DNA of 64,000 nucleotides from Naegleria gruberi (taxonomy: Eukaryota). This document shows positions 19,680-48,298 of the stretch, piece after piece; within the stretch, counting starts at the first letter, position 1, and the number at the start of each line of letters is the position of its first letter. The position numbers were made by a program, and so were the translations under genes. Location: the NCBI GenBank assembly GCA_000004985.1, contig GG738878.1. One strand, given 5' to 3'. The notes below the pieces were generated by a model. That model searched no databases. It was given only the letters and a program-made list of their open reading frames with translations, and was not told where the DNA came from.

Positions 19680-19780
19680 TTTTTTTAATAAATTATTTAT
19701 ATTTTATTAATACTTTACAATGCAGTATTTAAATATATTTAATGTTTAGCTATGGACAAGGTAGTATTTAAAGATGATGA

Positions 19781-21206
19781 TTATTGAATGAGATCAGAGA
19801 TGGCTCTTTGAATATCACCTTCATACCTATTCAATAAGGTAATATTAAGAATGTGATTGGTGAAACCCATTTGATTCAATAATTTCAATTCTTTTTGATA
19901 TTTGTGTGGAATGGTTGTTTTCACAACTGGTTCTTCTTCTTCATCAGGAATTGATTCAATAATTGGATCTTGATTTTCAAGATTTTGATTGGAAACTTGT
20001 TGAGCTTGTTGTTGATTGACTGATTCATTTTCTTCTTGAGAAGCAATTGTTTCTTGTTGAATTTGTTCAACGACTGATTCAATTGGTTGATCTTCAATTA
20101 AATTGGAGAGAAGCAATGAAGTGGTCATTGTTGGAGTATTTTCAGTAACAATTTCTTAGTTCTTGAATTGGTTCTTCTTCTTTTGGTTGAGAAACAACAA
20201 TTGCAGATGGAGAAGTTTGAATTGGTTTCTCTTCTTGTTTCTTTTCTTGAGTTTGTGATTGTTGACTCTTTTGCTCTTCTTCTCTCATTTCCTTCATTCT
20301 TTGAAGTAATAATTCTCTGAATGATTGAGGTGTAGTTTCCTTCTTTTCTTTCTTTGTTTCTTCCTTTTCTGGTTGTTGTTGTTGTTGAGCAGCTTCATTA
20401 CTTGTTGGAATTCCCAAAAGATCAGCAAGACTAATTTCAATTCTTCTCACTTTTGGTTTTGTTTGAGGAGTGGAAGCAGAAACTTGTGGAAAGAATGATT
20501 GTTTTGGTTGAGCTGGATTTTCATTTGAGAAGGCAGATCTAAATGCCTTTTCAATCATATTTTCCCAAGATTGTTCTGCTTGTTGTTGAGGAGATTGTTT
20601 CTTTTGAGATTCAACTCTTGGTTGTTGGAATTGAGCAAATAAACATGCTGATGGTGATGCTTGTGAAATTCTATTGAAGGCAATATGTTGTTGAGGATAT
20701 TGTTGAGGATATGCTTGTTGTTGTGGTGATTTGATTGATTTCTTTTCACAAATAATCTTGGTCAATTTTCCTTTCATTAATTTCAACATGAATTGGAAAT
20801 CTCTTAAATTGGTCAATGAAACCAAATCATCTTCATCATCAACATAATGTAATTCAAATTGTCTCCTATCAATGGAATGTTCTCTCAAAACTCTATCAAA
20901 TAATTCGAAACTTCTCTCATGATTAGAATCAATTTCAAATCTCAAAACATTTGAAGCACTATTCAAATTGTGATTGAATTTTCCTTCAAAAACATAAATT
21001 TTGAATGGAACATTTCTTTCAACTTGTCTTGTTTGTGGAGAAATCAAAAGTGGAATTTTCTTTACATTATTTGCAAAATGTTGAGTTGGATAATCATTGA
21101 ATGATGAAGTTTCTCTCAAATTTGGATAAGAAACTTGTCTTGGAATAGTTTGTTGTTGAGGTTGGAAAGCAGCTGCAGTAGAAATTGGAATGTGGATGAA
21201 ACTCAT
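19781..21206 (-). pseudogene. PB1-UBA protein (p62/SQSTM1-like), frameshifted paralog of the gene at 46540..47979. It is split into ORFs 20142..21206 and 19781..20128.
   Basis: Alignment to the intact copy shows an 11-nt deletion (copy 2 caagaacAAGTGAAGGAGAAAGaaattg versus copy 1 caagaacTAAGaaattg) plus a 3-nt in-frame indel. Otherwise the two copies are about 97% identical. Confidence 0.55.
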
Positions 21207-21876
21207 TTTGATTTGGTTGATTGATATTTAGTAGTAGTATTATTTACACTTCTTAATATTCAGATTTTGTACACAAAATTTGACAAGTAGTTTAAAAGAC
21301 TAGTTGTTGATGTTAATTAATTTTTTTTCTTATTGTTTTGCTTTCACATTTTTCACTCTTGATCTATTTATAGTTTTGATAAGGAAAATAATTTGAACGT
21401 GCTCAATACTTTGTACTCACAACAAGCGCAGTTATTTTTGTCGATTGAGTGAAGAACTCACAAATTCTTAATGTGTGATTGAAGGAAAGGAACCCACGGA
21501 ATTTCATACGGAATGTTATTTTTATCTTCGGAAGCAGAAATTTCCTTACTCGATTAAACTCAAGGAAACCAAAACAATCAAATGATAACATTCTTCCAAT
21601 CATTCAGTAAGGAAGTCATCAAAATTACACCCCATGTTTTTACCTCCCTCTGCCCTCAATGTTATTGTTCTGTTCAATTCTTGCTTGGATGGAATAATAA
21701 TGGAGGAGGATAGGAATCTACATCTTTAACGGTCATTCTTTCATACTTTCAATCTCAGTACTGAAGATTGATCCGTTTTGTTTGAAGAAATGAACATTAT
21801 TCTATAACTTATCAAAGTGTTACTAAGGGATGAGAGAAAAATTTCAAACTGGGGATCTGGAAAGCTTAAACTTCAC

Positions 21877-23154
21877 TCAATATAATCCCTTATATGTAAG
21901 TGATGTTAATTGTTTCATTTCCCTTATATATTTGACTCCTTCATCACCAATTCGATTGGCACGAATATTAAGTGATATCAACTGTTTCATTTCACTTATC
22001 AATTTGGTTCCTTCATCACCAATTTGATTGTAAGAAATATCAAGTGATTTTAATTGTTTCATTTCACTCATAGATTTGGCTCCTTCATCACCAATTCGAT
22101 TGCCAGAAATATTAAGTGATGTTAATTGTTTCATTTCACTTATTAATTTGGCTCCTTCATCACCAATTTGATTGTTAGAAATATCAAGTGATGTTAATTG
22201 TTTCATTTCACTTATCAATTTGACTCCTTCACCACCAATTTGATTGTTAGAAATATTAAGTGATGTTAATTGTTTCATTTCACTTATCAATTTGGCTCCT
22301 TCATCACCAATTAGATTGTCAGAAATATTAAGTGATGTTAATTGTTTCATTTCACTTATAAACTTGGCTCCTTCTACACCAATTAGATTGTCAGAAATAT
22401 CAAGTGATGTTAATTGTTTCATTTCACTTATGAATTTGGCTCCTTCACCACCAATTTGAGTGAAACCAATATTAAGTGATGTTAATTGTCTGGTTTCACT
22501 TATCAATTTGGCTCCTTCATCACCAATTTCATTTTCACAAATATTAAGTGATATCAACTGTTTCATTTCACTTAGATATTTGGCCCCTTCTACACCAATT
22601 CGATTGCAACAAATATTAAGTGATGTTAATTGTTTCATTTCACTTATCAATTTGGCTCCTTCATCACCAATTAGATTGTCAGAAATATTAAGTGATGTTA
22701 ATTGTTTCATTTCACTTATCAATTTGGCTTCTTCATCACCAATTTCATTTTTACCAATATTGAGTGATATCAACTGTTTCATTTCACTTATCAATTTGGC
22801 TTCATCACCAATTCCATTGCCAGAAATATCAAGTGATGTCAATTGTTTCATTTTGCTAATGAATTTGGCTTCTTCAAAAGAATCAAGCAACCAATCAGAA
22901 TATGTAACATTAACAATACAATTCATAAATTGACTTTTCAAAAATAATTGAACTCGTGTCTTTGTAAATTTTTTGTTAAATTGAATAGCAAGTTTTGAAC
23001 GTTCCTTGATCACATTAAAGAATTGTTTTGAAATCAAGGAACAATTATTTAAAATAAACCATGAATCATCAATCATGGAAATTATTTCAAAACAAATGTC
23101 ATCTGAAAATATTTCTTGTTCCACTTTCACACCCTTTTTTACTTTCTCTTCCAT
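21877..23154 (-). CDS. F-box-like protein with about 13 ribonuclease-inhibitor-type leucine-rich repeats (LRR paralog 1).
   Basis: F-box-like segment DDICFEIISMIDDSWFILNNCSLISKQFFNVIKE. The 24-aa repeats have consensus LTSLNISxNxIGDEGAKLISEMKQ, each encoded by a 72-bp unit. The N-terminus is truncated relative to the paralogs by a stop upstream of the MEEK start. Confidence 0.7.
   Translation of the reverse strand: MEEKVKKGVKVEQEIFSDDICFEIISMIDDSWFILNNCSLISKQFFNVIKERSKLAIQFNKKFTKTRVQLFLKSQFMNCIVNVTYSDWLLDSFEEAKFISKMKQLTSLDISGNGIGDEAKLISEMKQLISLNIGKNEIGDEEAKLISEMKQLTSLNISDNLIGDEGAKLISEMKQLTSLNICCNRIGVEGAKYLSEMKQLISLNICENEIGDEGAKLISETRQLTSLNIGFTQIGGEGAKFISEMKQLTSLDISDNLIGVEGAKFISEMKQLTSLNISDNLIGDEGAKLISEMKQLTSLNISNNQIGGEGVKLISEMKQLTSLDISNNQIGDEGAKLISEMKQLTSLNISGNRIGDEGAKSMSEMKQLKSLDISYNQIGDEGTKLISEMKQLISLNIRANRIGDEGVKYIREMKQLTSLTYKGLY
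21890..22830 (-). repeat. Tandem array of about 13 near-identical 72-bp units (the coding LRR modules of paralog 1).
   Basis: Visible 72-nt periodicity, for example the recurring gtgatgttaattgtttcatttcacttatcaatttggctccttcatcaccaatt. Confidence 0.8.
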
Positions 23155-23772
23155 ATTATTATTATTAAAATTGTTAGTGAATATTATTTGTTAAATATCT
23201 CCTCCGAATTAATGAATTGCTGATTTTCAAATTCTTATTTTTTTTTAAATGAGAAAATTTACACAGTTCGGACGATCATATGTTTTTTTAATAAATATTT
23301 AATATTTACTATTAGATGTAATTAGAAAAGTTGGGATAGGAAGATAGGAACTATTGTGCTTTGAAATATTTACATGAACCAATTTTATTCACCGAGTACA
23401 AATCAAACAATATTATATTGAATAATAAGAAAGATAGGGAAAACAATTTGAACGTGCTCAATACTTTGAATCACAACACAAATCCAGATTTATTGAATTG
23501 TTCTTTGCAGATTAAGTAAGAACTCACAATTTGTTAATGTGTATGAAAGGAACTTACAAAATTTCACACGGAATTTTATGTTTATCTTCAGGCAGAAATT
23601 TCCTTACTAGATTAAACTACCCATTCTATAACAAAAATAACAAAATCACATTCCGTATGAAATTCCAATCAAGTGATAACATTGATAAGTTATAGAATAA
23701 TGTTCATTTCTTCAAATACAAGCAAGAGTCTTTAAAGCTAAGATTGGGAAGGTCTTCACTCAATTTAATCCC

Positions 23773-25128
23773 TTATATGAGCGTAATTGATGTTAATTGT
23801 TTCATTTCACTTATCAATTTGGCTCCTTCACCACCAATTCGATTGTCAGCAATATTAAGTGATGTTAATTGTTTCATTTCACTTATAAGTTTAGCTCCTT
23901 CTATACCAATTTGATTGTAAGAAATATCAAGTGATTTTAATTGTTTCATTTCACTTATCAATTTGGTTTCTTCATCACCAATTTCATTGTTAGAAATATT
24001 AAGTAATGTTAATTGTCTCATTTCACTTATCAATTTGGTTCCTTCATTACTAATTCGATTGCTACGAATATTAAGTGATATCAACTGTTTCATTTCACTT
24101 ATCAATTTGACTCCTTCTATACCAATTCTATTGTTAGAAATATTAAGTGATCTTAATTGTCTCATTTCACTTATGAATTTGGCTCCTTGATTAACAATTC
24201 GATTGGCACGAATATTAAGTGATATCAACTGCTTCATTTCACTTATCAATTTGGCTCCTTCATCACCAATTAGATTGTTAGAAATATTAAGTGATGTTAA
24301 TTGTTTCATTTCACTTATCAATTTGGTTCCTTCTATACCAATATCACTTTCACCAATATTAAGCGATGTTAATTGTCTCATTTCACTTATCAATTTGACT
24401 CCTTCAATACCAATTCGATTGCCACAAATATTAAGTGATGTTAATTGTCTCATTTCACGTATGCATTTGGCTCCTTCAACATCAACTTGAGTGTAAGAAA
24501 TATCAAGTGATGCTAATTGTTTCATTTCACTTATATATTTGGCTCCTTCATCAATTTCATTTTTACCAATATTGAGTGATATCAACTGTTTCATTTCACT
24601 TAGATATTTGGCTCCTTCATCACCAATTAGATTGGCAGAAATATCAAGTGACGTTAATTGTTTCATTTCACTTATCAATTTGGCTTCTTCATCACCAATT
24701 CCATTGCCAGAAATACTAAGTGATGTCAATTGTTTCATTTTACTAATGAATTTGGCTTCTTCAAAAGAATCAAGCAACCAATCAGAATATGTAACATTAA
24801 CAATACAATTCATAAATTGACTTTTCAAAAATAATTGAACTCGTTTCTTTGTAAATTTTTTTTTAAATTGAATAGTAAGTTTTGAACGTTCCTTGATCAC
24901 ATTAAAGAATTGTTTTGAAATCAAGGAACAATTATTTAAAATAAACCATGAATCATCAATCATGGAAATTATTTCAAAACAAATGTCATCTGAAAATATT
25001 TCATGTTCCAGTTTTACAACCTTTTTTGATTTCTCTTCCATATTATTATTATTAAAATTGTTAGTGAATATTTCCTCCGAATTAATGAATTGATGATTTT
25101 CAAAATCTTGTCTGTTTCGTTTGCTCAT
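23773..25128 (-). CDS. F-box-like/RI-type LRR protein (LRR paralog 2, 451 aa), tandem to paralog 1.
   Basis: Same architecture as paralog 1. The N-terminus MSKRNRQDFENHQFINSEEIF... is almost identical to that of the gene at 45393. Confidence 0.7.
   Translation of the reverse strand: MSKRNRQDFENHQFINSEEIFTNNFNNNNMEEKSKKVVKLEHEIFSDDICFEIISMIDDSWFILNNCSLISKQFFNVIKERSKLTIQFKKKFTKKRVQLFLKSQFMNCIVNVTYSDWLLDSFEEAKFISKMKQLTSLSISGNGIGDEEAKLISEMKQLTSLDISANLIGDEGAKYLSEMKQLISLNIGKNEIDEGAKYISEMKQLASLDISYTQVDVEGAKCIREMRQLTSLNICGNRIGIEGVKLISEMRQLTSLNIGESDIGIEGTKLISEMKQLTSLNISNNLIGDEGAKLISEMKQLISLNIRANRIVNQGAKFISEMRQLRSLNISNNRIGIEGVKLISEMKQLISLNIRSNRISNEGTKLISEMRQLTLLNISNNEIGDEETKLISEMKQLKSLDISYNQIGIEGAKLISEMKQLTSLNIADNRIGGEGAKLISEMKQLTSITLI
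23780..24720 (-). repeat. Tandem array of 72-bp LRR-coding units (paralog 2).
   Basis: 72-nt periodicity. The units are about 85-95% identical to each other and to the array at 21890..22830. Confidence 0.8.
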
Positions 25129-25225
25129 TTTTTAATAAAATTTTAATAATATTTAATTTTTTTAGAATATGGTGTGATTGATCACTTGTAAGTATTGACT
25201 TCATCACAATCCTTCAAGTGTTCTC
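25129..25225 (-). promoter_or_regulatory. Conserved 5' flank (about 95 bp) shared by the LRR paralogs. The same block occurs at 45297..45392 upstream of paralog 3.
   Basis: Near-identical sequence gaaggattgtgaagtcaatacttacaagtgatcaatcacaccatattctaaaaaaattaaatattattaaaattttattaaaaaATG in both copies. Confidence 0.4.
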
Positions 25226-25328
25226 TTTATTGGTATGGTTAATGTATTATTCTCCATTTGTAGTAGTGACCTTTTTGTGAGTTAATTTCTTGCAGTTTTA
25301 ATTTGGTAAAGATTTTGATTCATCTCAA

Positions 25329-25628
25329 TCAATGCTCATTATTCTTGATTTCTTTAAATTGTTCCAAAACATCGAATTCATGTTCCAAAACATCATCCAA
25401 TTCATTTGCCTGTTGTTGTTGAGATGTAAAATCATCATTAGTATTGCGCCATCCTTTCGTGAGGAGGAAATTCTTCAAGAAGTTTTCATTATTATCATTT
25501 AGTTCATGATTATTTACATCTTGATTATCAAGATTCAACGATTTGATCTTGTCAAGAGATTTTTCAATATCTTCTTCGAGTGGAATTTCCTCCTTTTCAA
25601 CATTTTCGTCGGCTTTAGTTTGTGACAT
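25329..25628 (-). CDS. Small acidic protein (99 aa), hypothetical.
   Basis: ATG-initiated ORF with coding-like codon usage (GCC GAC, CGC, ACG). No domain recognised. Confidence 0.35.
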   Translation of the reverse strand: MSQTKADENVEKEEIPLEEDIEKSLDKIKSLNLDNQDVNNHELNDNNENFLKNFLLTKGWRNTNDDFTSQQQQANELDDVLEHEFDVLEQFKEIKNNEH

Positions 25629-25714
25629 TTTTTTTCAATTTGTTTGGATTTATTGTTGATCATTCAAGTAGTTTGTGTAACAATTATTGTTGTTTTATTA
25701 CAAGATAGCTTGAT

Positions 25715-27577: not shown

Positions 27578-27746
27578 TTTTTTTATGATGAATTAATTAT
27601 CAATTATTGACAGGTGAGGATGATTGCTTTTTGGCCAATGGGCACAACTTTAAAGTACTTTAATTTGTTTTTACCGTAGTTTGGTTTGAGATGGAAGTAA
27701 ATATAAAAGGAAGTGTTAAGAAGTATTGAAAAAATGCAGATTTGTT

Positions 27747-27795
27747 TTGGTCGTTAAACGGTATCGAACCTGCGACCAAAAAAATGGCTTATTAT
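27747..27795 (-). pseudogene. tRNA-Ile-like 3' half (anticodon arm to T arm) with no matching 5' half. This is a tRNA remnant or pseudogene.
   Basis: The reverse complement reads ...ATAATAAGCCATTTTTTTGGTCGCAGGTTCGATACCG..., closely matching CTAATAAGCCATTGGTCGCCGGTTCGATCCCG of the intact tRNA at 28904..28976. No acceptor or D arm is present upstream. Confidence 0.45.
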
Positions 27796-28086
27796 CATTT
27801 TATCAACCACATGAAGGAATTAGAGTATTATTTTCGAAACAACCTTGACAATGGCAATTTTCATTAAGAATAACAGAATTAATGTTGTACTCATTGATCT
27901 TAATTATAATCTTTGTTGTAATAGGATTACAATGACCTAATTTTCTTGGAAAATCATCTCCCAAAAAGTTTTAATTGCGCTTCAACATTCCTTCCAATGC
28001 CATTATTACTACTACGATGGTTTTCCTATCAATCAAACAAGTACGAAAGAAGTTGACAAAAAAACTATTCACACAAACTCAACAAA

Positions 28087-28903: not shown

Positions 28904-28976
28904 TGCTGACGGACGGGATCGAACCGGCGACCAATGGCTTATTAGACCAACGCTCTACCGACTGAGCTACGCCAGC
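28904..28976 (-). tRNA. tRNA-Ile (anticodon AAT), 73 nt.
   Basis: The reverse complement is GCTGGCGTAGCTCAGTCGGTAGAGCGTTGGTCTAATAAGCCATTGGTCGCCGGTTCGATCCCGTCCGTCAGCA. It has a 7-bp acceptor stem (one G-U), a D arm GCTC/GAGC, an anticodon loop CTAATAA and a T loop TTCGATC. One mismatch sits in the T stem. Confidence 0.75.
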
Positions 28977-31162: not shown

Positions 31163-32697
31163 ATGACAAACCAACAACAAGATGGTGGAGTAATTAACAC
31201 CACCTTCTCATCACCTCCAAACCAACAGTTTCGTATAAATTCACCACCTTCTCTCACTAACCTGACAAGTCAAACTTCATCTCAAGACACAATGCTTGCT
31301 GACTCACCAACCAAGATCAATAACAGTTCTCTTAATAGAAGAGAGTCCTCCACTCAAAAATCTACAACTAAAAGTTTACCATCCTCATCCAAAACTCCAA
31401 GAAGCTCCTCAGTTACAGGTTTCCATTCGAGAAACTTTCGTATATATACATGCTGTGGTATTCTAGAGCTGAATTGCTTGAAAATGACAAGTTTCCTTGC
31501 CTTGATCGTTAGTTTATTTGCTTTTGCATCCTTGATTGTGATCATTAGTGTAAACTATTCGATTGTTGCAGGTTTCAAAGCAACATTAGCAAATTTAGAC
31601 ACTGACGGAACTTATTACAGAGAATTAATGAAGTTATCTGCACGTGCTGCAGTCACAGCTGAATATAACAGAACATTGTCATTGGAATATGTCAATTTGT
31701 ACAATAATTATTACTATTTATACTATGTAGATTTAAACGCAACCATTGCAAATGTTCCTGCTTCAGTGCTGTATTGGAATCAACACAACATGTTGAGAGA
31801 CGATGTCAAATCCAGAAGAGCTGTCAAGATGGAAATCACCATGATGGTTCAAGTGACAAGTGGCAACTATTCTGCAGCTTTACAAACTCTCGATTCAGCT
31901 CAATACAAAGATTTATTAACAGGTTACCAGGAAGAAGTTCAAAGTATCTTTGATTATGCCGATAACATGAAAGAACAAAGTGCAAATCTCGATTTGGCAA
32001 CCACAACTGCTGCACTGATCATAGCCTGCACTTCCATTGTAATTGTGGTTCCTGTTCTGATTGTGTTTATTGTGTTGAGTGTCAAGAAAGATAATTCGAA
32101 AGAGAAACAATTGAGACAAGTGAAGAAATACATGATTATGGACACGATTAATGATCCTTCAGTGGTGGAAAAGTTTAAAGATTTTTGCAAACAAGAGAGA
32201 AGTGAAGAGAATTTTGCATTATTGGAAAAGATTAACGAATATAAGAAATTGTGTGAAAGAAGTTTCGATATTCAGGTTTTCTTATTCGATACTGATGTTT
32301 TGAGTAGTTCAGATCAATTTTCTGAGATGACTTCGTCGAGTAATGATGATTCTTCCAAGAAGAAGAACAAAGCAAAAAGGGATATACTGAAAAGGATTTA
32401 TTGGAAATTGAAAAGAAGAAATTCGAAATTGCATTCGAAATTTATTCAGAATTTTTGGATGTTCGTGGTGATCGTTCAGTGAATATCAGTAAGGCATTTG
32501 CTGATAATGTGAAACAACACTTGGATTATTTCGCAAAGGGAGAAAACGAATCCATTCCAGAAAGTTTATTCGAAAGTATTGAATACGAAATGTGTGTCTT
32601 GATGATGGACACTCACCACAGATTCAAACAACACTTGGAATTGCAAATGAAAGAAAAGAAACAAATCTTGTCTTCTCTCAAGAAATCCAAAAAGTAA
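31163..32697 (+). CDS. Transmembrane RGS-domain protein, paralog 1. The frame is broken by a 1-nt deletion at about 32373 and continues as ORF 32401..32697.
   Basis: Ser-rich N-terminus, a CCGILELNC motif, a TM helix, an extracellular region, a second TM, then an RGS domain (FKDFCKQERSEENFALLEKINEYKK ... EIYSEFLDVRGDRSVNIS...MMDTHHRFKQ). Compared with paralog 2 (gctaaaaaggg), this copy reads gcaaaaaggg, one nucleotide short. Confidence 0.6.
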
Positions 32698-33320: not shown

Positions 33321-34874
33321 ATGACAGGTACAACAATCGAAATGCTAGATAGTAGTGCTACGAACATTAATACTTCCACAACTAGCTTTTCCTCCAATCA
33401 AATCAACAGAATCAACTCTCCACCTTCAGTCAACCTGACCAGTTTGACCTCTTCACAAGATTCCATGATTCCAACATCACCAACCAATAATTCCAACTCT
33501 ATGAACAGAAGAGATTCCACTCACAAATCCACAACTGGTAAAAGTTTACCATCCTCATTGAAAACACCAAGAACTTCATCTGTTACTGCTTTCCATTCGA
33601 AAAACTTTCGTATACATACATGTTGTGGCATTCTAGAGCTGAATTGCTTGAAAATGACAAGTTTGGCAGCACTTGTTGTTAGTTTATTCGCATTTACTGC
33701 CTTAATTGCAATCATTAGTTTAAACTATTCAGTAGTTGCCACCTATCACTCAAGTTTAGAAACTTTAGAAACTTCTGGAACTTATTACAGAGAATTGATG
33801 AAATTATCTGCACGTGCTGCAGTCACAGCTGATTATAACAGAACCTTGTCATTGGAATATGTCGACTTGTACAATAGTTATTTTAAAGAGTATTATGTAG
33901 TAATGAATAATTTAATTGCAAACGTTCCTCCTTCAGTGCTGTATTGGAATCAACATAACATGTTGAGAGAAAATGTCAAATCAAGAAAAGCTGTCAATAT
34001 GGAAGTTGCCATGATGTCACAAGTCACAAATGGAAATTATACAGCAGCTCTCAGATCCCTCGATTCAGATCAATACAAAGATTTGCTAACAGGTTATGAA
34101 GAAGAAGTTCAAAGTATCATTGATTATGTCGCCGACCTTAAATATTCGAATGCAGAAATGGATTTGGCAACCACAACTGTTGCCTTGATTATTATTTGCA
34201 TTTCTCTGGCAATTGTTATTCCAGTTCTGATTGTATTTGTATTATTGAGTGTTCAGAAAGATAATTCGAAAGAGAAACAATTGAGACAAGTGAAGAAATA
34301 CATGATTATGGATACGATTAATGATCCTTCTGTGGTGGAGAAGTTTAAAGATTTTTGCAAACAAGAGAGAAGTGAAGAAAATTTTGCATTGTTGGAAAAG
34401 ATTAATGAGTATAAGAAATTGTGTGAAAGAAGTTTCGATATTCAGGTTTTCTTATTCGATACTGATGTATTGAGTAGTTCAGATCAATTTTCTGAAACAA
34501 CAACATCCAGTACTGAAGACGCATCCAAGAAGAAGAACAAAGCTAAAAAGGGATATACTGAAAAAGATTTAATGGAAATTGAAAAGAAGAAATTCGAAAT
34601 TGCATTCGAAATTTATTCAGAATTCTTGGATGTTCGTGGTGATCGTTCAGTGAATATCAGCAAGGCATTTGCTGATAATGTGAAACAGCATTTGGATTAT
34701 TTCGCAAAGGGAGAAAATGAATCCATTCCAGAAAGTTTATTCGATAGTGTGGAATACGAAATGTGTGTCTTGATGATGGACACCCACCACAGATTCAAAC
34801 AATTTATGGAAGTTTCCCTCAAGGAAAAGAAACAAATTCTTTCAACATTGAAGAGAAAAACTGTAAAAAAGTAA
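33321..34874 (+). CDS. Transmembrane RGS-domain protein, paralog 2 (intact, 517 aa).
   Basis: Same architecture as paralog 1 (about 80% identity) with an uninterrupted ORF and a complete RGS domain. Confidence 0.65.
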   Translation: MTGTTIEMLDSSATNINTSTTSFSSNQINRINSPPSVNLTSLTSSQDSMIPTSPTNNSNSMNRRDSTHKSTTGKSLPSSLKTPRTSSVTAFHSKNFRIHTCCGILELNCLKMTSLAALVVSLFAFTALIAIISLNYSVVATYHSSLETLETSGTYYRELMKLSARAAVTADYNRTLSLEYVDLYNSYFKEYYVVMNNLIANVPPSVLYWNQHNMLRENVKSRKAVNMEVAMMSQVTNGNYTAALRSLDSDQYKDLLTGYEEEVQSIIDYVADLKYSNAEMDLATTTVALIIICISLAIVIPVLIVFVLLSVQKDNSKEKQLRQVKKYMIMDTINDPSVVEKFKDFCKQERSEENFALLEKINEYKKLCERSFDIQVFLFDTDVLSSSDQFSETTTSSTEDASKKKNKAKKGYTEKDLMEIEKKKFEIAFEIYSEFLDVRGDRSVNISKAFADNVKQHLDYFAKGENESIPESLFDSVEYEMCVLMMDTHHRFKQFMEVSLKEKKQILSTLKRKTVKK

Positions 34875-39756: not shown

Positions 39757-40498
39757 TTAAATATTTACAAATTTAGTATTTCCATGTTCTGTTACAATCT
39801 TAATCAAAGATCCAGATACAGGTTTTTCTCTACATTCAATCCAATCCACAATCTTTTCAGAAACATGATCCAAAGGAGTCCAATTTGAAAAATCAGCATT
39901 TGGCATTGCATTTCTATTAGCTTCAGTATCCAACATTGAAGGAACAATTCCAACAGTTGTTGTTCCTCTAGGAAGTCCACATTGTTCAGGATCTGCAAAG
40001 CTCTTCACCAAATGATGAACAGAACTCTTAGCCACACCATAAGCCAATGTCACTGGAGTTTTCCCTAAAGCTCCTGCAGCTCCAGGCAAAACCAACAAAC
40101 CATCCTCTCTCATATATTTACTAGCACACAACGCACTCAACAAGGACGATTGAACACTCACTTGCCACATCAAATCAACTTGTGAGAGGAGAGTTGGTTC
40201 CTTCAAATCTCCCATCATGAAACCACCTGCAACATTAATCACAGCCTCCAAATTATTATTATTAGCTGGATTTAGAGAGGAGAGAATTCAAGGCTTTCTC
40301 AATGGTTTGTTGACTCAATTCACCCGAATGATTATTTGCGTTTGATGATGATGCTGAAGGTAATACAATGGAATGATCAGCTTCGGAATTTTCCTTCAAA
40401 TCAATGGAAATGGCAATGAAATTCTTCTTTTTTAAAGAACGGATGAGATTTTTTCCGAGAGCACCAAAGCCACCAAAGACTGCTACGTGTTTAGACAT
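39757..40498 (-). CDS. QDPR: Dihydropteridine reductase (QDPR, SDR family). The frame is broken inside a (TAA)4/(AAT)4 microsatellite at about 40252-40262.
   Basis: N-terminal MSKHVAVFGGFGALGKNLIRSLKKKNFIAISIDL matches the Rossmann GxxGxxG fold. The C-terminal ORF reads ...VINVAGGFMMGDL...DLMWQVSVQSS...LLVLPGAAGALGKTPVTLAYGVAKSSVHHLVKS...LDTEANRNAMPNADFSNWTPLD...SGSLIKIVTEHG. This aligns closely with human QDPR ([39 protein letters not shown]). Confidence 0.75.
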
Positions 40499-40598
40499 TT
40501 TTTTTTAATAATATTTAAACTATTTAAATAATATTTAATATATTTAAAAAAAATTGTAAAGTGTATTAAACAACAAAAATATCCAACACCAAAAAAAA

Positions 40599-42002: not shown

Positions 42003-42012
42003 TATTACAAGA

Positions 42013-44554
42013 TTATTTTATAAATACTTTCTTTGACTCTTTCCACATCTCTGACAAATCTTTTCCTCGAATTAGAGAATTACTTGCTCTCAAGTAGAAA
42101 TGATCTTGATGTTCAAATTGACTGGCACTAGTTAAAATACGTTCCTTAAATTGATTTTCCAATTGTGGAGACTCTGGAATAGATATAGTATTTTCAAAAA
42201 AGGAGGTAATGAGATAATTCTGCAGGGAATTGAGGATTGAAAGAATAATTGGAGATTTGAGGTTCTTGGCTATGTGGAAGAAATCTTTCCCAACGCTTGC
42301 ATTCATTTCTTGAAGATTCTTATCGTTAGTGTTGAGAATACCTTGCATGTAAATACTCAAGTTCAACAACTTGGACATGTACTCCAAGAAGAGAACTTCC
42401 AAATCTTGCTCCCCTTCTGATGTGATAACGCTCAAGAAGGTCAAACATTCTGTCAAGTTTCTTGGAATAAAGCATTCCATTTCTGCCATAACATAGTTGG
42501 TATTCAGTGACATGGAGCTGTACTGACTAGTGAGAATGGCAAAGAATTTCGTGTTAAACTTTTCAAATTGATCGACAAGTTTTGCTGATTTCGTAGTGAT
42601 TCCAGAGAGGTAAGTAAGCTTGAGAAAGTTGAACACCAATTTCTTGAACTGTACACTATTGGTTGTACATCCCTCAATCTGTTGATGGATTTCAATGAGC
42701 AACAAGTATCTGGTAAATAGAGCATGTTGTAACTCCAATACACTTTGAATATCAACATTCTCTGATAACTTGTTCACAATTAGATCAAGCATATTCTTAA
42801 TGACGAGTTGATTGTAGGATGAATTCACACTCTTGAATTCGAGGATGGTATTAAAGAAGGAACTCCACAGATTACAAATTATAGTCTGTATGTCATTGGT
42901 GATAATATTGAAATCCTTCTTATTTTGCTTTACACTCTTCTCACTTTCTAATAATAAGATTGGTCTATTATCATCATGTGGGGAGAGCTTGAATAGACAA
43001 TAGTATTTCAAAAAGAGAGACTCTAGGGAAAAATACATGCCGTGGTAGTATGGTTCCATAATTCTATTGAGAATAGAGAGGAGAACCTTTTCTCTAATGA
43101 AAGGCATCAATTGATTCTTACTCTTATTACCATCCATACACTCAACCAAAAAGCTAACGAATTCATCTGATAAAAAGAGACGAAACATTTCGTTAAAGCT
43201 ATCATCTGGACAGTTTTCCTTAATATCATTAGGGAGGTTTGCTTCAGGGAAGATCATGTGTAAAATGTAATTTCTTCTATCAATTTCCTTTCTAGAGAAG
43301 AGGGCTGGGATTACTGGTGTGGTAGTTGCTGCATTGGAGCTGCTGGAGGCAATTATCTGAGAGTTAGACTGCAATAGATTGGTCCTTTCCAAATCTACTA
43401 CTGTTGCAGAGGGAACCTCATTCTTCTTAGAGACCTTTCTTTTCTTTGCTTCCTCCTTACTTTGAGCTTCCTCTTCAGCTGTCTTCATCTTTGGTCCTCT
43501 CTTCTTAGGTTCATAATAAACACATTCATCAGGTATTCCTCTCTTTTTACATTCACCACAAGGCATTCCCTTATCTTTAAAATGGGGTCTGTAAATTTTA
43601 CTGTAATCTCTACAAATACTTACCACTAAATTAGAGTCAATTACAACCTGCCTAATACATTGAAAATACTTACCATTTACGATGTGATTTTCTACAATTT
43701 ATACATGCCATTCTGGCTTGACTTGGATCTGTGGGTGGTTGTTGGGTTTGGGAGTTATTGGATGAAGGGGCTTGTTGGACGGATGAGGAGGCCACTATTA
43801 CTGATTGTGTTGTCTTTACCAACTCTTGGTCAGCAATACAGTGAGAAACCTTAACTGGTGTCGTGGTAGGACTGTTTGTGACAATAATTCCAGTTGTTGT
43901 GGAAGAGGAAGGATTAGATGATGGTTGCATTTCAGGACTTGTCCCAATTGTTACTTGCTGTGGAGTCTTTCTGTATCCAGATATATAGCCAGGAATAAAA
44001 CTATCCATAGGAACAATATCAATACTTGGTTGAATAATGGCTTGATAAAGAGGAGGTGCATATCTTACAATAGTTTGTGGTTGTGCTGACAAGGCTTCCA
44101 TCAAATCATGACCACCATTACTATGAAGAGGTGGTTTTGGTTCCATATTATTACCACGCCACGATTGTGGATGTTGTTGTTGATAGTGATGAATGTGATC
44201 CACCATGACTTTTGAAGATGGTTGTTGTGAAGTCAAATTATGAATGGAAGGAAGACTGAATCCTTGTTGATGTTGATGTGGAGGTGTCTGGGAAGGAATA
44301 AAAGAGGAAGAATTGCTCTTCATAGCAAGAGGCAAACAGGAAGGGTAAATTGATGAACTCGGATTCATCATGATTAAATTATTGTGCTGATGATGATGAT
44401 TATTACCCACATGATGATGGTGACCACTAGAAGCAATATGAGAATTATTTGTGGTATTATTGGTGGAGGAGGAATTGGTTGGTGTGGATGGAGTGGATGG
44501 CGATTGTTGTTGTTGCCCAGGCTCCACTTTCACCATCACAGCTAAAGGTTTCAT
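42013..44554 (-). CDS. Zn(II)2Cys6 (fungal-type zinc cluster) transcription factor. Two exons, 43674..44554 and 42013..43600, with a 73-nt intron. The N-terminus is His/Gln/Ser/Pro-rich.
   Basis: Exon 1 ends ...RMACINCRKSHRK-TG|GTAAGT. The acceptor ...gattacag|t gives Cys, so the spliced product reads ACINCRKSHRKC-KIYRPHFKDKGM-PCGECKKRGIPDECVYYEPKKRGPK, a six-Cys cluster pattern CX2CX6C...CX2CX8C. The track start at 44617 is a GTG, and the first ATG is at 44554. Confidence 0.6.
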
Positions 44555-45392
44555 AGTTGTTTGTCCCTTCTTGTGTTTTTTGTGGTGTCTTTTTGCTGAT
44601 GAACGCAGAAATCGCACAGAAAGGTTAAAAACGTTTTTTTTTGCGTAAAAATTTTTTTAAGGATTTTATCGTTGCGGGTAAACGAGAAAACTCCGAGTTG
44701 AAAGGTCATCATTCTCTCAAGAAATTGCAATTCTGTTTCAATCAATGGGACAACACAAGTGGGTAATGCAATATATTACTCCATTTCTCCTCAACTTCCT
44801 TGCAATACAAAGTCTAACTTCTGGTTGATTTTATTTGTGAGAAAGAGAAAAAAACATTGAGGGAAAATGCATCATCCAATATTGTTAAACCTTCTCACAT
44901 TTTCCACTGCACCTGCTCTTTATCCATCCAGTAACTGCAGTTTACAGTACAGTTGGAAAATTGTTTGGATACGGCTCCACCTTATCTGAATAGCAAACCC
45001 TTTTCTCAAAGATCCAAAGGGCAGTTTCTCAATGAACCAATGAGATGCAGTAAGTAGTGGGAGCTTTGTAAACTTGAAAAGATCAATTGCGTAAATCATT
45101 TATTTGAATAAATTTTCAAATCTGCCAAATAACCAAAGAAGGGAGCTGTTTCTTACAAATTTTCTTTGAATTCTTGTATAATTCTCCAAGTGAATTCTAA
45201 TATAATGGAAATTTCCAATAGGAATTGTTGCATTAATGAGATGGTTCCACAACAATAAACTTCTCCTTTGGTTGCATACCATCTCACCAAATAATTTCTC
45301 GAATCTATGAAGGATTGTGAAGTCAATACTTACAAGTGATCAATCACACCATATTCTAAAAAAATTAAATATTATTAAAATTTTATTAAAAA

Positions 45393-46040
45393 ATGAGCAA
45401 ACGAAACAGACAAGATTTTGAAAATCATCAATTCATTAATTCGGAGGAAATATTCACTAACAATTTTAATAATAATAATATGGAAGAGAAATCAAAAAAA
45501 ATTGTAAAACTGGAACAAGAAATATTTTCAGATGACATTTGTTTTGAAATAATTTCCATGATTGATGATTCATGGTTTATTTTAAATAATTGTACTTTAA
45601 TTTCAAAACAATTCTTTAATGTGATCAAGGAACGTTCAAAACTTGCTATTCAATTTAAAAAAAAATTTACAGAGAAACGAGTTCAATTATTTTTGAAAAC
45701 TCAATTCATGAATAGTATTGTTAATGTTACATTTTCTAGTTGGTTGCTTGATTCTTTTGAAGAAGCCAAATTCATAACTGAAATGAAACAGTTGATATCA
45801 CTTAATATTCGTGGCTATGATTTTGGTGATGAAGAAGCCAAATTGATAAGTGAAATGAAACAATTAACATCACTTGATATTTCTTACAATCAAATTGGTG
45901 ATGAAGGAGCCAAATATCTAAGTGAAATGAAACAGTTGATATCACTTAATATTCGTGGCAATCGAATTGGTGATGAAGGAGTCAAATATATAAGTGAAAT
46001 GAAACAATTAACATCACTTACATATAAGGGATTATATTGA
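45393..46040 (+). CDS. F-box-like/RI-type LRR protein, paralog 3 (215 aa, only about 4 LRR units).
   Basis: The N-terminal 110 aa are about 95% identical to paralog 2. The C-terminus LTSLTYKGLY is the same as paralog 1. The repeat array has far fewer 72-bp units. Confidence 0.7.
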   Translation: MSKRNRQDFENHQFINSEEIFTNNFNNNNMEEKSKKIVKLEQEIFSDDICFEIISMIDDSWFILNNCTLISKQFFNVIKERSKLAIQFKKKFTEKRVQLFLKTQFMNSIVNVTFSSWLLDSFEEAKFITEMKQLISLNIRGYDFGDEEAKLISEMKQLTSLDISYNQIGDEGAKYLSEMKQLISLNIRGNRIGDEGVKYISEMKQLTSLTYKGLY

Positions 46041-46539
46041 GTGAAGTTTAAGCTTTCCAGATCCCCAGTTTGAAATTTTTCTCTCATCCCTTAGTAACAC
46101 TTTGAAAAGTTATAGAATAATATTCATTTCTTCAAACAACACGGATCAATCTTCAGTACTGAGATTGAAAGTATGAAAGAATGACTGTTGTTTCGGTTTC
46201 CTTGAGTTTAATCGAGTAAGGAAATTTCTGCTTCCGAAGATAAAAATAACATTCCGTATGAAATTCCGTGAGTTCCTTTCCTTCAATCACACATTAAGAA
46301 TTTGTGAGTTCTTCACTCAATCGACAAAAATAACTGCGCTTGTTGTGAGTACAAAGTATTGAGCACGTTCAAATTATTTTCCTTATCAAAACTATAAATA
46401 GATCATGTGAAAAATGTGAAAGCAAAACAATAAGAAAAAAAATTAATTAACATCAACAACTGGTCTACTTGTCAAATTTTGTGTACAAAATCTTAAGAAG
46501 TGTAAATAATACTACTAAATACCAATCAACCAAATCAAA

Positions 46540-47979
46540 ATGAGTTTCATCCACATTCCAATTTCTACTGCAGCTGCTTTCCAACCTCAACAACAAACTA
46601 TTCCAAGACAAGTTTCTTATCCAAATTTGAGAGAAACTTCATCATTCAATGATTATCCAACTCAAAATTTTGTAAATAATGTAACAAAAATTCCACTTTT
46701 GATTTCTCCACAAACAAGACAAGTTGAAAGAAATGTTCCATTCAAAATTTATGTTTTTGAAGGAAAATTCAATCACAATTTGAATAGTGCTTCAAATGTT
46801 TTGAGATTTGAAATTGATTCTAATCATGAGAGAAGTTTCGAATTATTTGATAGAGTTTTGAGAGAACATTCCATTGATAGGAGACAATTTGAATTACATT
46901 ATGTTGATGATGAAGATGATTTGGTTTCATTGACAAATTTAAGAGATTTCCAATTCATGTTGAAATTAATGAAAGGAAAATTGACCAAGATTATTTGTGA
47001 AAAGAAATCAATCAAATCACCACAACAACAAGCATATCCTCAACAATATCCTCAACAACATATTGCCTTCAATAGAATTTCACAAGCATCACCATCAGCA
47101 TGTTTATTTGCTCAATTCCAACAACCAAGAGTTGAATCTCAAAAGAAACAAGCTCCTCAACAACAAGCAGAACAATCTTGGGAAAATATGATTGAAAAGG
47201 CATTTAGATCTGCCTTCTCAAATGAAAATCCAACTCAACCAAAACAATCATTCTTTCCACAAGTTGCTGCTTCCACTCCTCAAACAAAACCAAAAGTGAG
47301 AAGAATTGAAATTAGTCTTTCTGATCTTTTGGGAATTCCAACAAGTAATGAAGCTGCTCAACAACCAGAAAAGGAAGAAACAAAGAAAGAAAAGAAGGAA
47401 AGTACTTCTACACCTCAATCATTCAGAGAATTATTACTTCAAAGAATGAAGGAAATGAGAGAAGAAGAGCAAAAGAGTCAACAATCACAAACTCAAGAAA
47501 AGAAACAAGAAGAGAAACCTATTCAAACTTCTCCAACTGCAATTGTTGTTTCTCAACCAAAAGAAGAAGAAGAACCAATTCAAGAACAAGTGAAGGAGAA
47601 AGAAATTGTTACTGAAAATACTCCAACTATGACCACTTCATTGCTTCTCTCCAATTTAATTGAAGATCAACCAACTGAATCAGTCGTTGAACAAGTTCAA
47701 CAAGAAACAATTGCTTCTCAAGAAGAAACAGAATCAGTGAATCAACAACAAGCTCAACAAGTTTCCAATCAAAATCTTGAAAATCAAGATCCAATTATTG
47801 AATCAATTCCTGAAGAAGAAGAAGAACCAGTTGTGAAAACAACCATTCCACACAAATATCAAAAAGAATTGAAATTATTGAATCAAATGGGTTTCACCAA
47901 TCATATTCTTAATATTACCTTATTGAATAGGTATGAAGGTGATATTCAAAGAGCCATCTCTGATCTCATTCATCAATAA
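46540..47979 (+). CDS. PB1-UBA protein (p62/SQSTM1-like ubiquitin-binding scaffold), the intact copy (479 aa).
   Basis: N-terminal PB1 domain (VPFKIYVFEGKF...LHYVDDEDDLVSLTNLRDFQFMLKL, an OPCA-type acidic motif), a Q/E/K-rich linker and a C-terminal UBA (ELKLLNQMGFTNHILNITLLNRYEGDIQRAISDLI). Confidence 0.7.
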   Translation: MSFIHIPISTAAAFQPQQQTIPRQVSYPNLRETSSFNDYPTQNFVNNVTKIPLLISPQTRQVERNVPFKIYVFEGKFNHNLNSASNVLRFEIDSNHERSFELFDRVLREHSIDRRQFELHYVDDEDDLVSLTNLRDFQFMLKLMKGKLTKIICEKKSIKSPQQQAYPQQYPQQHIAFNRISQASPSACLFAQFQQPRVESQKKQAPQQQAEQSWENMIEKAFRSAFSNENPTQPKQSFFPQVAASTPQTKPKVRRIEISLSDLLGIPTSNEAAQQPEKEETKKEKKESTSTPQSFRELLLQRMKEMREEEQKSQQSQTQEKKQEEKPIQTSPTAIVVSQPKEEEEPIQEQVKEKEIVTENTPTMTTSLLLSNLIEDQPTESVVEQVQQETIASQEETESVNQQQAQQVSNQNLENQDPIIESIPEEEEEPVVKTTIPHKYQKELKLLNQMGFTNHILNITLLNRYEGDIQRAISDLIHQ

Positions 47980-48298
47980 TCATCAAGTTTAAATAAATAC
48001 TACCTTGTAAATATCTAAATATTAAATAATTCGCTTTACAAGTAGTTGCCTGTTAAGCCATGCATGTTAACCGTACTACAGAATGTAGTTATACTTGTAG
48101 TAGGAGGAAGATCATCTGTTGTTACAAGAGATTCACAAATCAAGTTCTTTATGTAATTGCCATCATTAATTTCTGTTTTTAGTATAATCTACAAATGTTT
48201 AATATTTTGATCTATGTCCTTCAATACATCTGTAACATTAGAATACTGCAAATTTTTCATCTTCTTAATAATATTTGATAAAGGAAGAACATCAAATT

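Follow-up and report, generated by a model that had tools for sequence, protein, structure and literature searches.

Within a 64,000-nucleotide stretch of Naegleria gruberi DNA (the window), an LRR gene and a PB1-UBA gene lie side by side at two places in opposite orientations. Are these two blocks a genuine duplication or one locus assembled twice, and, if genuine, how did they come to differ and what do their genes probably do?

Extent and identity of the duplicated blocks

The first-pass annotation had proposed that an LRR gene and its PB1-UBA neighbour were duplicated in inverted orientation, with the copies about 20 kb apart and with common flanks. Comparison of the window against itself by BLAST recovered both blocks as inverted arms, and a separate repeat search gave identical arms. 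Together with alignments (boundary alignments for block A), these searches define the following features:

19732-25216, minus strand: block A, 5485 nt, in the order LRR-2, LRR-1, PB1-UBA-A
45308-48031, plus strand: block B, 2724 nt, LRR-3 and PB1-UBA-B
25217-45307: unique spacer, 20.1 kb
25129-25216, minus strand: 5' flank of LRR-2, 88 nt, the inner boundary of block A
23773-25128, minus strand: LRR-2, 451 aa; 29-aa basic N-terminal extension, head and 14 LRR units
21877-23154, minus strand: LRR-1, 425 aa; conserved head of ~95 aa and 14 LRR units of 24 aa
45393-46040, plus strand: LRR-3 (P0005), 215 aa; N-terminal extension, head and only 4 LRR units
21578-21727, minus strand: 150-nt stretch in block A only, unique within the window

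The main inverted match pairs 19732-21577 with 48031-46188 (95.4% identity, 1873 columns). Two further matches cover the LRR genes: 24505-25216 with 46019-45308 (93.8%, 715 columns) and 21728-22159 with 46189-45758 (93.8%). No further copy of the block was found within the window. The common 5' flank, expected to be ~95 bp, measures 88 nt (96.6% identical to 45308-45392), and the region between the LRR and PB1-UBA genes is 93.5-97% identical between blocks. A coding identity above 95% had also been claimed; this holds for PB1-UBA (98.3% by substitutions) but not for the LRR heads (~95% for LRR-2/LRR-3 and ~93% for LRR-1/LRR-3). Block A does contain two tandem LRR genes, as described, and its 150-nt stretch was either gained by A or lost from B.

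The spacer carries a tRNA-Ile gene, a tandem RGS pair, an actin-family gene, a short-chain dehydrogenase gene and others. Self-BLAST and Pfam identified RGS, previously listed as single-copy, as a diverged tandem pair, and no RWP-RK match was obtained in the two ORFs scanned with Pfam (42013-43626 and 43670-44617).

A frameshift in one PB1-UBA copy

The gene pair had been described as intact in both blocks, but PB1-UBA-A carries an 11-nt frameshifting deletion:

46540-47979, plus strand: PB1-UBA-B (P0001), 479 aa, intact copy
19781-21206, minus strand: PB1-UBA-A, frameshifted copy, split into two ORFs
20142-21206, minus strand: PB1-UBA-A ORF 1, 354 aa, PB1 and linker, ending ELRNCY-stop
19781-20128, minus strand: PB1-UBA-A ORF 2, 115 aa, UBA out of frame
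20158-20159, minus strand: site of the 11-nt deletion relative to 47588-47598 in block B

After the deletion a substitution creates a TAA codon. The NCBI model XP_002675426 (P0002, 455 aa) bridges the frameshift with a 58-nt GT..AG 'intron' that takes out conserved coding sequence. Between the two copies there are ~25 substitutions in 1440 nt (~1.7%; dS 0.024, dN 0.012), the shortfall in the 95.4% BLAST identity being mostly indels. When amino-acid changes were polarised with the outgroup P0003, all five polarisable changes downstream of the frameshift were A-derived, compared with one A-derived and five B-derived changes upstream (Fisher p = 0.015 for asymmetry). This concentration of A-specific changes in the out-of-frame tail indicates that PB1-UBA-A is truncated or decaying; it would now encode at most a PB1-only product, with its UBA-coding tail apparently drifting.

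Genuine duplication or assembly artefact

A Sanger-era assembly might have placed one locus, or its two alleles, twice in opposite orientations. Such an error would fit with heterozygosity of strain NEG-M, which a passage of PMC9928731 reports with reference to Fritz-Laylin 2010, and with the protein clusters of the block genes, which hold a single contig each. However, the window contains no N bases and thus no scaffold gap at any block junction, and on all four sides homology stops abruptly at unique sequence with different unique genes, whereas a misplaced haplotig should bring its own flanking genes along. The blocks also differ in structure (28 versus 4 LRR units, the 150-nt indel, nine small indels and the frameshift), and the asymmetry of amino-acid changes about the frameshift is that of separately evolving loci. 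A single N. gruberi scaffold of 395,411 bp carries the annotated models P0001, P0002 and P0005. We regard an artefact as very improbable, and the two blocks are confirmed as the product of a real inverted segmental duplication, recent in evolutionary terms, in the N. gruberi nuclear genome.

The LRR genes and their flanks

The LRR units are of the RI type proposed earlier (Pfam LRR_6, E down to 3e-63), and they vary most at positions 18, 19, 21 and 24. LRR-1 and LRR-2 show in-register orthology at unit 1 only, other units being equally alike within and between the genes. Other annotated family members have just 4-6 units. LRR-1 is a 5'-truncated tandem copy in which the original ATG and promoter are gone; it starts at an internal Met and has a 14-nt insertion upstream. 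Its tail (ending TSLTYKGLY-stop) and 3' UTR (21728-21876) are 97-98% identical to LRR-3. In LRR-2 a 4-nt insertion before the stop codon alters the C-terminus (ending SITLI-stop). LRR-3 resembles LRR-2 in its head and 5' flank and LRR-1 in its last units and 3' UTR: identity to LRR-2 is 97-100% over the 5' flank and 87-nt extension (0/87 nt differ in the extension), and identity to LRR-1 is 93-98% over the 3' UTR and the last two units. A terminal architecture of a DISYNQ unit, a NIRxNR unit and a short terminal unit is common to all three genes.

Several flanking elements bear on the history of these genes:

21351-21577, minus strand: PB1-UBA-A upstream (promoter) region, conserved, 97-99% identical to 46188-46414
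46188-46414, plus strand: PB1-UBA-B upstream (promoter) region, conserved
23433-23618, minus strand: third copy of the PB1-UBA upstream element, diverged (79%)
23237-23432, minus strand: tandem-duplication junction, ~196 nt of filler

Over the 352 nt upstream of PB1-UBA the blocks differ by 5 substitutions. The region in block A carries a 21-mer (21393-21413) and a TATAAATAG box, and that in block B has the 21-mer on the minus strand (46352-46372). The third copy lies downstream of LRR-2, ~290 nt upstream of the LRR-1 start; its 21-mer (23448-23468) is intact and its TATA box is not conserved. The 21-mer had been quoted as a threefold motif; three occurrences and no more were counted, at 21393(+), 23448(+) and 46352(-), within ~10 nt of the positions first given, with zero occurrences expected by chance. 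No homolog of the junction filler was found in the window.

The order of events

The tandem LRR duplication had been placed after the inversion, an order that the 3' ends do not support. The terminal units of LRR-1 and LRR-3 are 98% identical, whereas that of LRR-2 is 77-79% identical to either. Likewise, the two copies of the element upstream of PB1-UBA are 97% identical, but the copy downstream of LRR-2 matches them at 79%, and the LRR-2 3' UTR is nearly unalignable to that of LRR-1. The LRR-2 3' flank is thus far more diverged than those of LRR-1 and LRR-3, which suggests that the tandem pair predates the A/B copy.

On this basis the following history can be proposed. An old local tandem duplication would have produced LRR-2 and the 5'-truncated LRR-1. 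One end of the duplicated unit would have lain ~20 nt into the LRR coding sequence and the other immediately upstream of the TATA box of PB1-UBA, which would account for the copy of the PB1-UBA upstream element now in front of LRR-1. LRR-1 and LRR-2 may then have continued to exchange sequence, as their heads are 97-98% identical and they have 14 units each in scrambled order. The whole three-gene block of ~5.5 kb would next have been copied in inverted orientation 20 kb away (divergence ~1.7%, dS ~0.02). Block B would subsequently have lost ~2.6 kb as 72-nt LRR units exchanged unequally or slipped during replication, joining an LRR-2 head to an LRR-1 tail to give the in-frame, 4-unit LRR-3. 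The 11-nt deletion in block A frameshifted PB1-UBA, and small indels and gene-conversion patches explain the uneven identity along the blocks. The A/B copy, the 11-nt deletion and the small indels and conversion patches are visible in the sequence, from which we infer their order and mechanisms. As a whole, this history seems to us somewhat more probable than not.

The LRR heads point the other way. Over 279 nt, LRR-1 and LRR-2 differ at 9 positions, LRR-2 and LRR-3 at 14 and LRR-1 and LRR-3 at 19, and at least three amino-acid states (K, C, Y) common to the LRR-1 and LRR-2 heads are derived when compared with LRR-3 and with five outgroup paralogues. If the tandem duplication came first, the one explanation for this grouping is that LRR-1 and LRR-2 underwent gene conversion with each other once the A/B copy had been made. 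A two-gene unit of a short LRR gene and PB1-UBA might instead have been duplicated and inverted first, with array growth and tandem duplication following in block A. The 4-unit LRR-3 could then be ancestral rather than collapsed, consistent with the unit numbers of other annotated members and with the ending of both long genes in the LRR-3 terminal architecture. The diverged LRR-2 3' end would be ascribed to conversion by a distant paralogue or to non-homologous repair at the duplication junction. However, this order predicts at least 97-98% identity between the LRR-2 and LRR-1 3' flanks, where the element shows 79%, the last unit 77% and the 3' UTR almost no alignment. It also demands growth from 4 to 14 units, duplication and 12-15% array divergence while the A/B flanks changed by less than 2%, and an additional ad hoc conversion from an unseen donor. 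An inversion-first origin is possible but on balance unlikely. Under either order, the 5% head divergence of LRR-2 and LRR-3, greater than the 1.7% elsewhere between blocks, indicates a mosaic history.

The locus resembles inverted segmental duplications and tandem LRR clusters such as plant R-gene clusters: the duplicates are longer than 1 kb, more than 90% identical, inverted and separated by a unique spacer, repeat-unit number has changed (14, 14 and 4), one gene is a head/tail chimera, identity is patchy in a way that indicates conversion, and one copy shows early pseudogenisation. It differs in that the host is a heterolobosean amoeba, that the LRR family is small (~8 members detected) and lacks NB-ARC or other signalling domains, and that continuing turnover is putative here.

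Predicted functions of the two proteins

Intact PB1-UBA-B has a PB1 domain (residues ~63-158), after which a long, disordered linker rich in Q, E and K leads to a UBA at the C-terminus (residues ~438-478). The PB1 domain scores above the Pfam cut-off, and its model finds its best fold matches in the PB1 domains of p62, PKC, NBR1 and p40phox/p67phox. UBA scores fall under the cut-off, the region matches PDB entries for the UBA domains of ubiquilin and Dsk2, and a C-terminal UBA is likely. Profile searches identified PB1-ZZ-UBA and PB1-ZZ-NBR1_IG-UBA proteins as remote relatives. Full-length relatives are confined to Naegleria-like organisms (three representatives among 1.84 billion proteins), and a third N. 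gruberi paralogue, NAEGRDRAFT_69945, lies on a 379,849-bp scaffold. The label 'p62-like' is apt for the end domains only. Like p62/SQSTM1 and NBR1, the protein has an N-terminal PB1 with an acidic YVDDEDDLVSL stretch and first-strand lysine, a long disordered linker and a C-terminal three-helix UBA with an MGF motif; in contrast, it has no ZZ zinc finger or NBR1 FW/Ig domain by Pfam, and no validated LIR motif. By analogy, intact PB1-UBA probably self-oligomerises and acts as a ubiquitin receptor in the manner of p62/NBR1.

The LRR gene had been called an F-box gene, yet with the threshold relaxed to E<=10 its head still matched none of the Pfam models F-box, F-box-like and F-box_5. Profile-profile comparison with the F-box (hhalign) was in register but weak (P 0.0025, probability 12%), and AlphaFold predicts the head with pLDDT <50. 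Profile comparison and fold prediction are only suggestive here, and the ~95-residue head is possibly a divergent F-box. As in the FBXL-type SCF receptors Skp2, FBXL2 and FBXL17, a short helical head directly precedes the LRR solenoid, its motif FSDDICFEIISMIDDSWFILNNCSLISKQFFNVI aligns in register with LPxEILxxIFSxL...VCKxWxxL, and FBXL2, FBXL17, KDM2A-SKP1 and COI1 are among the fold matches. However, NLRP, tropomodulin and Legionella LRR proteins match equally well, a Ser stands where the LP motif of an F-box has its invariant Pro, and the N. gruberi units are of the 24-residue RI type (LRR_6), unlike the 26-residue units of FBXL proteins. From their domains, the LRR proteins are probably protein-binding adaptors, with the variable residues on the LxxLxLxxN face.

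If the LRR protein were an F-box-like adaptor acting in the same pathway as PB1-UBA, a ubiquitin receptor, selection might have co-amplified the two; such a pathway could be the selective, ubiquitin-dependent autophagy of prey or of bacteria inside the cell. In keeping with this, the pair was duplicated as a unit with a highly conserved intergenic region, the LRR residues that vary cluster on the putative ligand-binding face, the arrays are highly unstable in length, and the genes could be co-regulated, since LRR-1 is preceded by a copy of the PB1-UBA upstream element whose 21-mer is unaltered. However, their adjacency is not conserved at two related loci: the locus of a 48%-identical PB1-UBA orthologue in another Naegleria-like organism (L001) has no LRR neighbour, and an LRR paralogue locus (L002) has no PB1-UBA neighbour. 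Moreover, the scaffold with the third PB1-UBA gene has none of the four other annotated N. gruberi LRR paralogues. One PB1-UBA is frameshifted and one LRR gene apparently collapsed, which neutral turnover fits better than dosage selection, and the LRR head is only a candidate F-box. Co-amplification of a functional module consequently strikes us as improbable; the two genes were duplicated together because they were neighbours, not because of a demonstrated joint function. The LRR family is lineage-specific, and the duplication that it shares with PB1-UBA is an ordinary one, whose copies are now being remodelled through loss of repeats, gene conversion and a frameshift.

An inverted duplication of a linked LRR/PB1-UBA gene pair

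Self-comparison of the window bore out the inverted duplication of linked LRR and PB1-UBA genes that the first-pass annotation had proposed. In inverted orientation, 19732-21577 matched 48031-46188 (95.4% over 1873 columns), 24505-25216 matched 46019-45308 (93.8% over 715 columns) and 21728-22159 matched 46189-45758 (93.8%), and the limits of the two blocks were set from these matches.

Duplicated blocks and their genes
19732-25216, genes on the minus strand: block A, 5485 nt
23773..25128, minus: LRR-2, 451 aa, first gene of block A
21877..23154, minus: LRR-1, 425 aa, second gene of block A
20142..21206 + 19781..20128, minus: PB1-UBA-A, split into two ORFs
45308-48031, plus: block B, 2724 nt
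45393..46040, plus: LRR-3, 215 aa
46540..47979, plus: PB1-UBA-B, 479 aa, intact

The two inverted copies are at least 1 kb long and at least 90% identical, and each lies within unique sequence. Each of the four block borders is an abrupt stop of homology at a different unique neighbour (a DUF7897 gene, a small ORF, a Q-rich ORF and a kinase-like gene), and no N occurs anywhere in the window. The gapless sequence, the sharp unique borders, the large structural differences between the blocks and the asymmetric substitutions argue against a mis-assembly.

The 4.6% BLAST "divergence" of the PB1-UBA half consists mostly of indels. Substitutions are few: approximately 25 in the 1440 coding nucleotides of PB1-UBA (dS 0.024, dN 0.012), five in the 352 nt upstream of this gene, and three differing positions in the 88-nt LRR 5′ flank plus the 87-nt N-terminal extension, while the 3′ UTRs of LRR-1 and LRR-3 are 97.3% identical, indicating that the A/B copy is very young. 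For PB1-UBA, omega was ~0.5, based on only 20 countable changes, too few to separate constraint from neutrality. Block A alone has a 150-nt stretch (21578-21727), unique in the window, that separates the 3′ UTR of LRR-1 from the conserved upstream element, with a partial direct repeat at its borders (GATTGAAAGTATGAAAGAATGAC / GATTGGAAGAATG). The inverted segmental duplication of this linked LRR/PB1-UBA pair is both real and young.

The 20.1-kb spacer contains no further copy of the block. The genes there had been described as single-copy, which does not hold for RGS: two diverged copies (31163..32482 and 33321..34874) lie in tandem in direct orientation, with 84.7% DNA identity over ~1.4 kb between 31259-32669 and 33432-34841 and a period of ~2170 nt. 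The spacer also carries an actin-family gene and a short-chain dehydrogenase, compatible with the Arp1 and QDPR assignments, and an RWP-RK domain was not found by Pfam in the spacer ORFs scanned (42013..43626 and 43670..44617). Two tRNA genes were detected in the window, a tRNA-Ile(AAT) within the spacer (28904-28976, minus) and a selenocysteine tRNA at 59969-60054 (plus; Rfam 69.8 bits, ARAGORN anticodon TCA). A transposon or viral origin of the duplication was considered and dropped: the ORF lists held no mobile-element genes, there were no terminal repeats, and G+C content in 2-kb windows was 28-32% across the blocks and 30-36% elsewhere in the window.

LRR genes and their repeat arrays

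All three LRR proteins matched the Pfam model LRR_6 (E = 3.4e-63 for LRR-1, 2.2e-39 for LRR-2 and 1.2e-13 for LRR-3), as well as other LRR models. Each has a conserved head of ~95 residues and, after it, an array of units that are all exactly 24 residues long, with 14 units in LRR-1, 14 in LRR-2 and four in LRR-3. AlphaFold modelled a solenoid with pLDDT 82-94 over residues 131-210, and the Foldseek matches of this model were LRR proteins. The significant profile matches, the 24-residue units, the modelled solenoid and the fold matches together place the proteins among the RI-like LRRs. Variation between units is concentrated at positions 18, 19, 21 and 24, the x positions of LxxLxLxxNxI.

With the head as query, only LRR-3 itself, one metagenomic relative and four N. 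gruberi paralogues from other scaffolds were recovered; the family is thus small in the collections searched, and every member found in this way has 4-6 units. The ORF translations of LRR-1 and LRR-2 had no exact match in a collection of 15 billion proteins, indicating that these genes have not been annotated in this form. On the plus strand, both long arrays (21830-24820) are crossed by long antisense ORFs (56-157 aa) that contain the repeat ...ILSDVNCFISLINLAPSSPI...; these arise from the 72-nt periodicity and do not represent separate genes.

The LRR genes had also been described as F-box genes, which the profile searches did not support. No Pfam F-box family (PF00646, PF12937, PF18511 and related models) matched the full LRR proteins at E<=0.1 or the three isolated heads at E<=10, while seven F-boxes used as a positive control scored 28-77 bits with the same library. 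Alignment of the family head with seven validated F-boxes by hhalign gave a weak match of 34 columns in register (P 0.0025, probability 11.8%), pairing FSDDICFEIISMIDD..SWFILNNCTLISKQFFNVIKE of the head with LPDELLLGIFSCL..ELLKVSGVCKRWYRLASD of the F-box. AlphaFold predicted three helices in the head (47-56, 61-69 and 72-81) with low pLDDT (28-51), and Foldseek returned FBXL2-SKP1 (200 aligned columns), FBXL17, KDM2A-SKP1 and COI1 amid many LRR proteins that are not F-box proteins. These three results are at best suggestive, making an F-box identity of the head plausible as a lead and not an established feature.

A PB1-UBA protein lacking the ZZ finger

The PB1-UBA-B ORF is 100% identical to "predicted protein [Naegleria gruberi]", encoded on a 395,411-bp scaffold, which identifies the window as nuclear DNA of this heterolobosean amoeba. 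The PB1 profile (PF00564) was passed marginally, at 23.9 bits for the block B protein and 25.9 bits for the block A protein against a cut-off of 23.6. The AlphaFold model of residues 67-155 has the bbabbab topology of a beta-grasp (pLDDT 59-81), and its top Foldseek matches were the PB1 domains of p62/PKCzeta, p62, NBR1 and p40phox/p67phox (E = 1.5e-4 to 1e-3). Both profile score and predicted fold thus identify a PB1 domain.

At the C-terminus, the last 40 residues scored 19.8 and 23.5 bits with the UBA profile PF24932 (UBA_NBR1_C), under its cut-off of 27. Three helices were predicted here (pLDDT ~50-62), and a PDB profile search with this region returned solely UBA domains as top matches (ubiquilin-4, -2 and -1, and Dsk2; E = 0.012-0.26). 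Most remote library matches also cover the UBA region, and those scanned bear Pfam UBA domains.

When 1.84 billion representatives were searched exhaustively with the profile, the only full-length relatives (E<1e-30) were P0003, P0004 and P0011; the remaining matches covered the UBA end or the PB1 end alone. P0003 is a third N. gruberi paralogue (XP_002674969, NAEGRDRAFT_69945; 456 aa, 84% identical) on another scaffold (379,849 bp), and its locus offers a natural outgroup for dating the events. The remote relatives that were scanned have PB1-ZZ-UBA or PB1-ZZ-NBR1_IG-UBA architectures, i.e. those of p62 and NBR1. In contrast to p62/SQSTM1, the Naegleria protein has no ZZ zinc finger between PB1 and UBA: Pfam gave no ZZ match in either copy, while the finger was scored in the remote relatives P0014, P0015, P0017, P0043, P0047 and P0054. 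Unlike NBR1, it also lacks the FW/Ig-like domain (PF16158), which is present in P0043 and P0054. The conserved stretches SFREL(L/F) and SWENMI, inspected by eye, are not canonical acidic LIRs.

The description "p62-like" is therefore apt for the PB1 match and the likely UBA at the C-terminus but not for the middle of the protein, and in the strict sense the protein belongs to neither the p62/SQSTM1 nor the NBR1 family. Judging by the matches of its two end domains and the p62/NBR1 type of its remote relatives, PB1-UBA probably acts like a p62/NBR1-type oligomerising ubiquitin receptor.

A conserved element upstream of PB1-UBA

A 227-nt element (21351-21577 / 46188-46414) is near-perfectly conserved between the blocks. 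It contains a motif of 21-24 nt, CAAAGTATTGAGCACGTTCAAATT, followed ~20 nt on by a TATAAATAG box, upstream of the PB1-UBA gene. The first-pass annotation had quoted this 21-mer from three places, and exactly three occurrences were found in the window, with a chance expectation of none.

Copies of the 21-mer motif
21393-21413: block A, upstream of PB1-UBA-A
23448-23468: block A, third copy of the element
46352-46372: block B, upstream of PB1-UBA-B
~2357-2407 of L001: Naegleria-like locus with a PB1-UBA orthologue

The motif CAAAGTATTGAGCACGTTCAAATT is perfect even in the third copy of the element, which is 79% identical overall, and it is largely retained in L001 despite only 48% protein identity; alignment with this locus indicates that the short motif upstream of PB1-UBA is conserved across species. 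A non-coding RNA within the element was considered and rejected. Rfam gave no match at gathering thresholds and only chance-level matches (E over 1) at a permissive threshold, and the promoter is the better reading because the cross-species alignment comes down to a 24-nt motif and a TATA box. The motif is probably a promoter element and a transcription-factor site.

A frameshift in the block A PB1-UBA gene

An 11-nt stretch of block B (47588-47598) is absent from PB1-UBA-A, where a TAA codon follows directly. In the 455-aa NCBI model (XP_002675426, NAEGRDRAFT_69380) the frame is regained by a 58-nt GT..AG "intron". This segment, ...ENTPTMTTSLLLSNLIED, is coding in block B and in the third paralogue, and for the most part also in the orthologue with 48% identity. 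Most likely, the intron is a construct of the annotation.

Amino-acid differences between A and B were polarised using the third paralogue as outgroup. Downstream of the frameshift all five resolvable changes are A-derived, compared with one A-derived and five B-derived upstream (Fisher p = 0.015). This asymmetry fits a real frameshift, with the UBA-coding part downstream of it released from constraint.

Order of the duplications

In block A the tandem unit occupies ~21378 to ~23236 and, a second time, ~23433 to ~25105, with ~196 nt of filler at the junction. The first of these coordinates falls directly upstream of the PB1-UBA TATA box and the last 20 nt inside the LRR coding sequence, and LRR-1 was therefore left without its original ATG and promoter. 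What remains of the N-terminal extension in LRR-1 is interrupted by a 14-nt insertion, and the ORF begins at an internal Met. The third copy of the PB1-UBA upstream element, motif included, now stands ~290 nt in front of promoterless LRR-1.

The first-pass annotation had placed the tandem LRR duplication after the inversion. The tandem pair itself is present, but the placement sits poorly with the 3′ end of LRR-2. The element copy at 23433-23618 shares only 79% identity with the other two, against 97% between those two; the 3′ UTRs of LRR-2 and LRR-1 are almost unalignable; a 4-nt insertion alters the LRR-2 C-terminus; and the terminal unit of LRR-2 is 77-79% identical to those of LRR-1 and LRR-3, compared with 98% between the latter two. 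If these regions are approximately neutral, the tandem duplication long predates the A/B copy, and block B would have begun with both LRR genes. Consistent with this, LRR-3 combines the 5′ flank, N-terminal extension and first units of LRR-2 with the last units and 3′ UTR of LRR-1. A single unequal exchange or slippage between 72-nt units could have produced it, with the loss of about one tandem period and ten units. On these comparisons we lean towards an order in which the tandem duplication came first and the array in block B later collapsed.

The reverse order, in which the inverted duplication came first and the 3′ end of LRR-2 was overwritten later by a diverged donor, appears rather unlikely. 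It would account for the heads (279 nt), where LRR-1 and LRR-2 are closest (nine differences; 14 and 19 for the other pairs) and share three residues derived relative to LRR-3 and five outgroup paralogues, and short arrays are the norm of the LRR family; however, the element, 3′ UTR and last unit of LRR-2 are far more diverged than their LRR-1/LRR-3 counterparts. With the tandem duplication first, we attribute the closeness of the heads and their shared derived residues to gene conversion within the tandem pair.

Such conversion makes the order of events harder to read. The arrays show no in-register unit orthology past unit 1, a clear case, from these alignments, of concerted evolution; dating the array expansion by unit orthology was given up, the arrays being too homogenised save for unit 1 and the terminal units. 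After copying, one copy would have lost LRR units by unequal exchange and the other its putative ubiquitin-binding tail to the frameshift.

Gene pairing and significance

Synteny of the gene pair was examined in relatives. In L001 (Logan SRR25266747) the upstream neighbour of the PB1-UBA orthologue is an EGF-like repeat gene on the opposite strand and not an LRR gene, and PB1-UBA is the only gene this locus has in common with the window. An ENA metagenome contig with an LRR paralogue (L002) has no PB1-UBA neighbour. The LRR/PB1-UBA adjacency is thus absent from both, and none of the other annotated LRR paralogues of N. gruberi shares a scaffold with the third PB1-UBA gene. Physical linkage is thus the best explanation of the co-duplication.

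A far more elaborate reading would unite the LRR adaptor with the ZZ-less PB1-UBA receptor in one ubiquitin/selective-autophagy module, co-regulated and co-amplified in a bacterivorous amoeba, in which the hypervariable, length-unstable array recognises prey or intracellular bacteria, the tandem duplication put LRR-1 under a copy of the PB1-UBA promoter element, and the inverted repeats permit flip-flop inversion of the 20-kb segment; we regard this combination as highly improbable.

A literature search found no description of the locus, the LRR family or the PB1-UBA protein. The duplication is a fresh instance of a well-known type of event, and no sign of unusual biology was found. It has little significance beyond the N. 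gruberi genome, where it provides a clean, small, textbook-scale case of a gene pair copied and then diverging fast. For the annotation of this genome it flags the intron drawn over the frameshift in XP_002675426 and the two missing 14-unit LRR ORFs, and it points out a conserved candidate promoter motif upstream of PB1-UBA. The Naegleria-restricted, ZZ-less PB1-UBA protein is a candidate p62/NBR1-type receptor in Heterolobosea.
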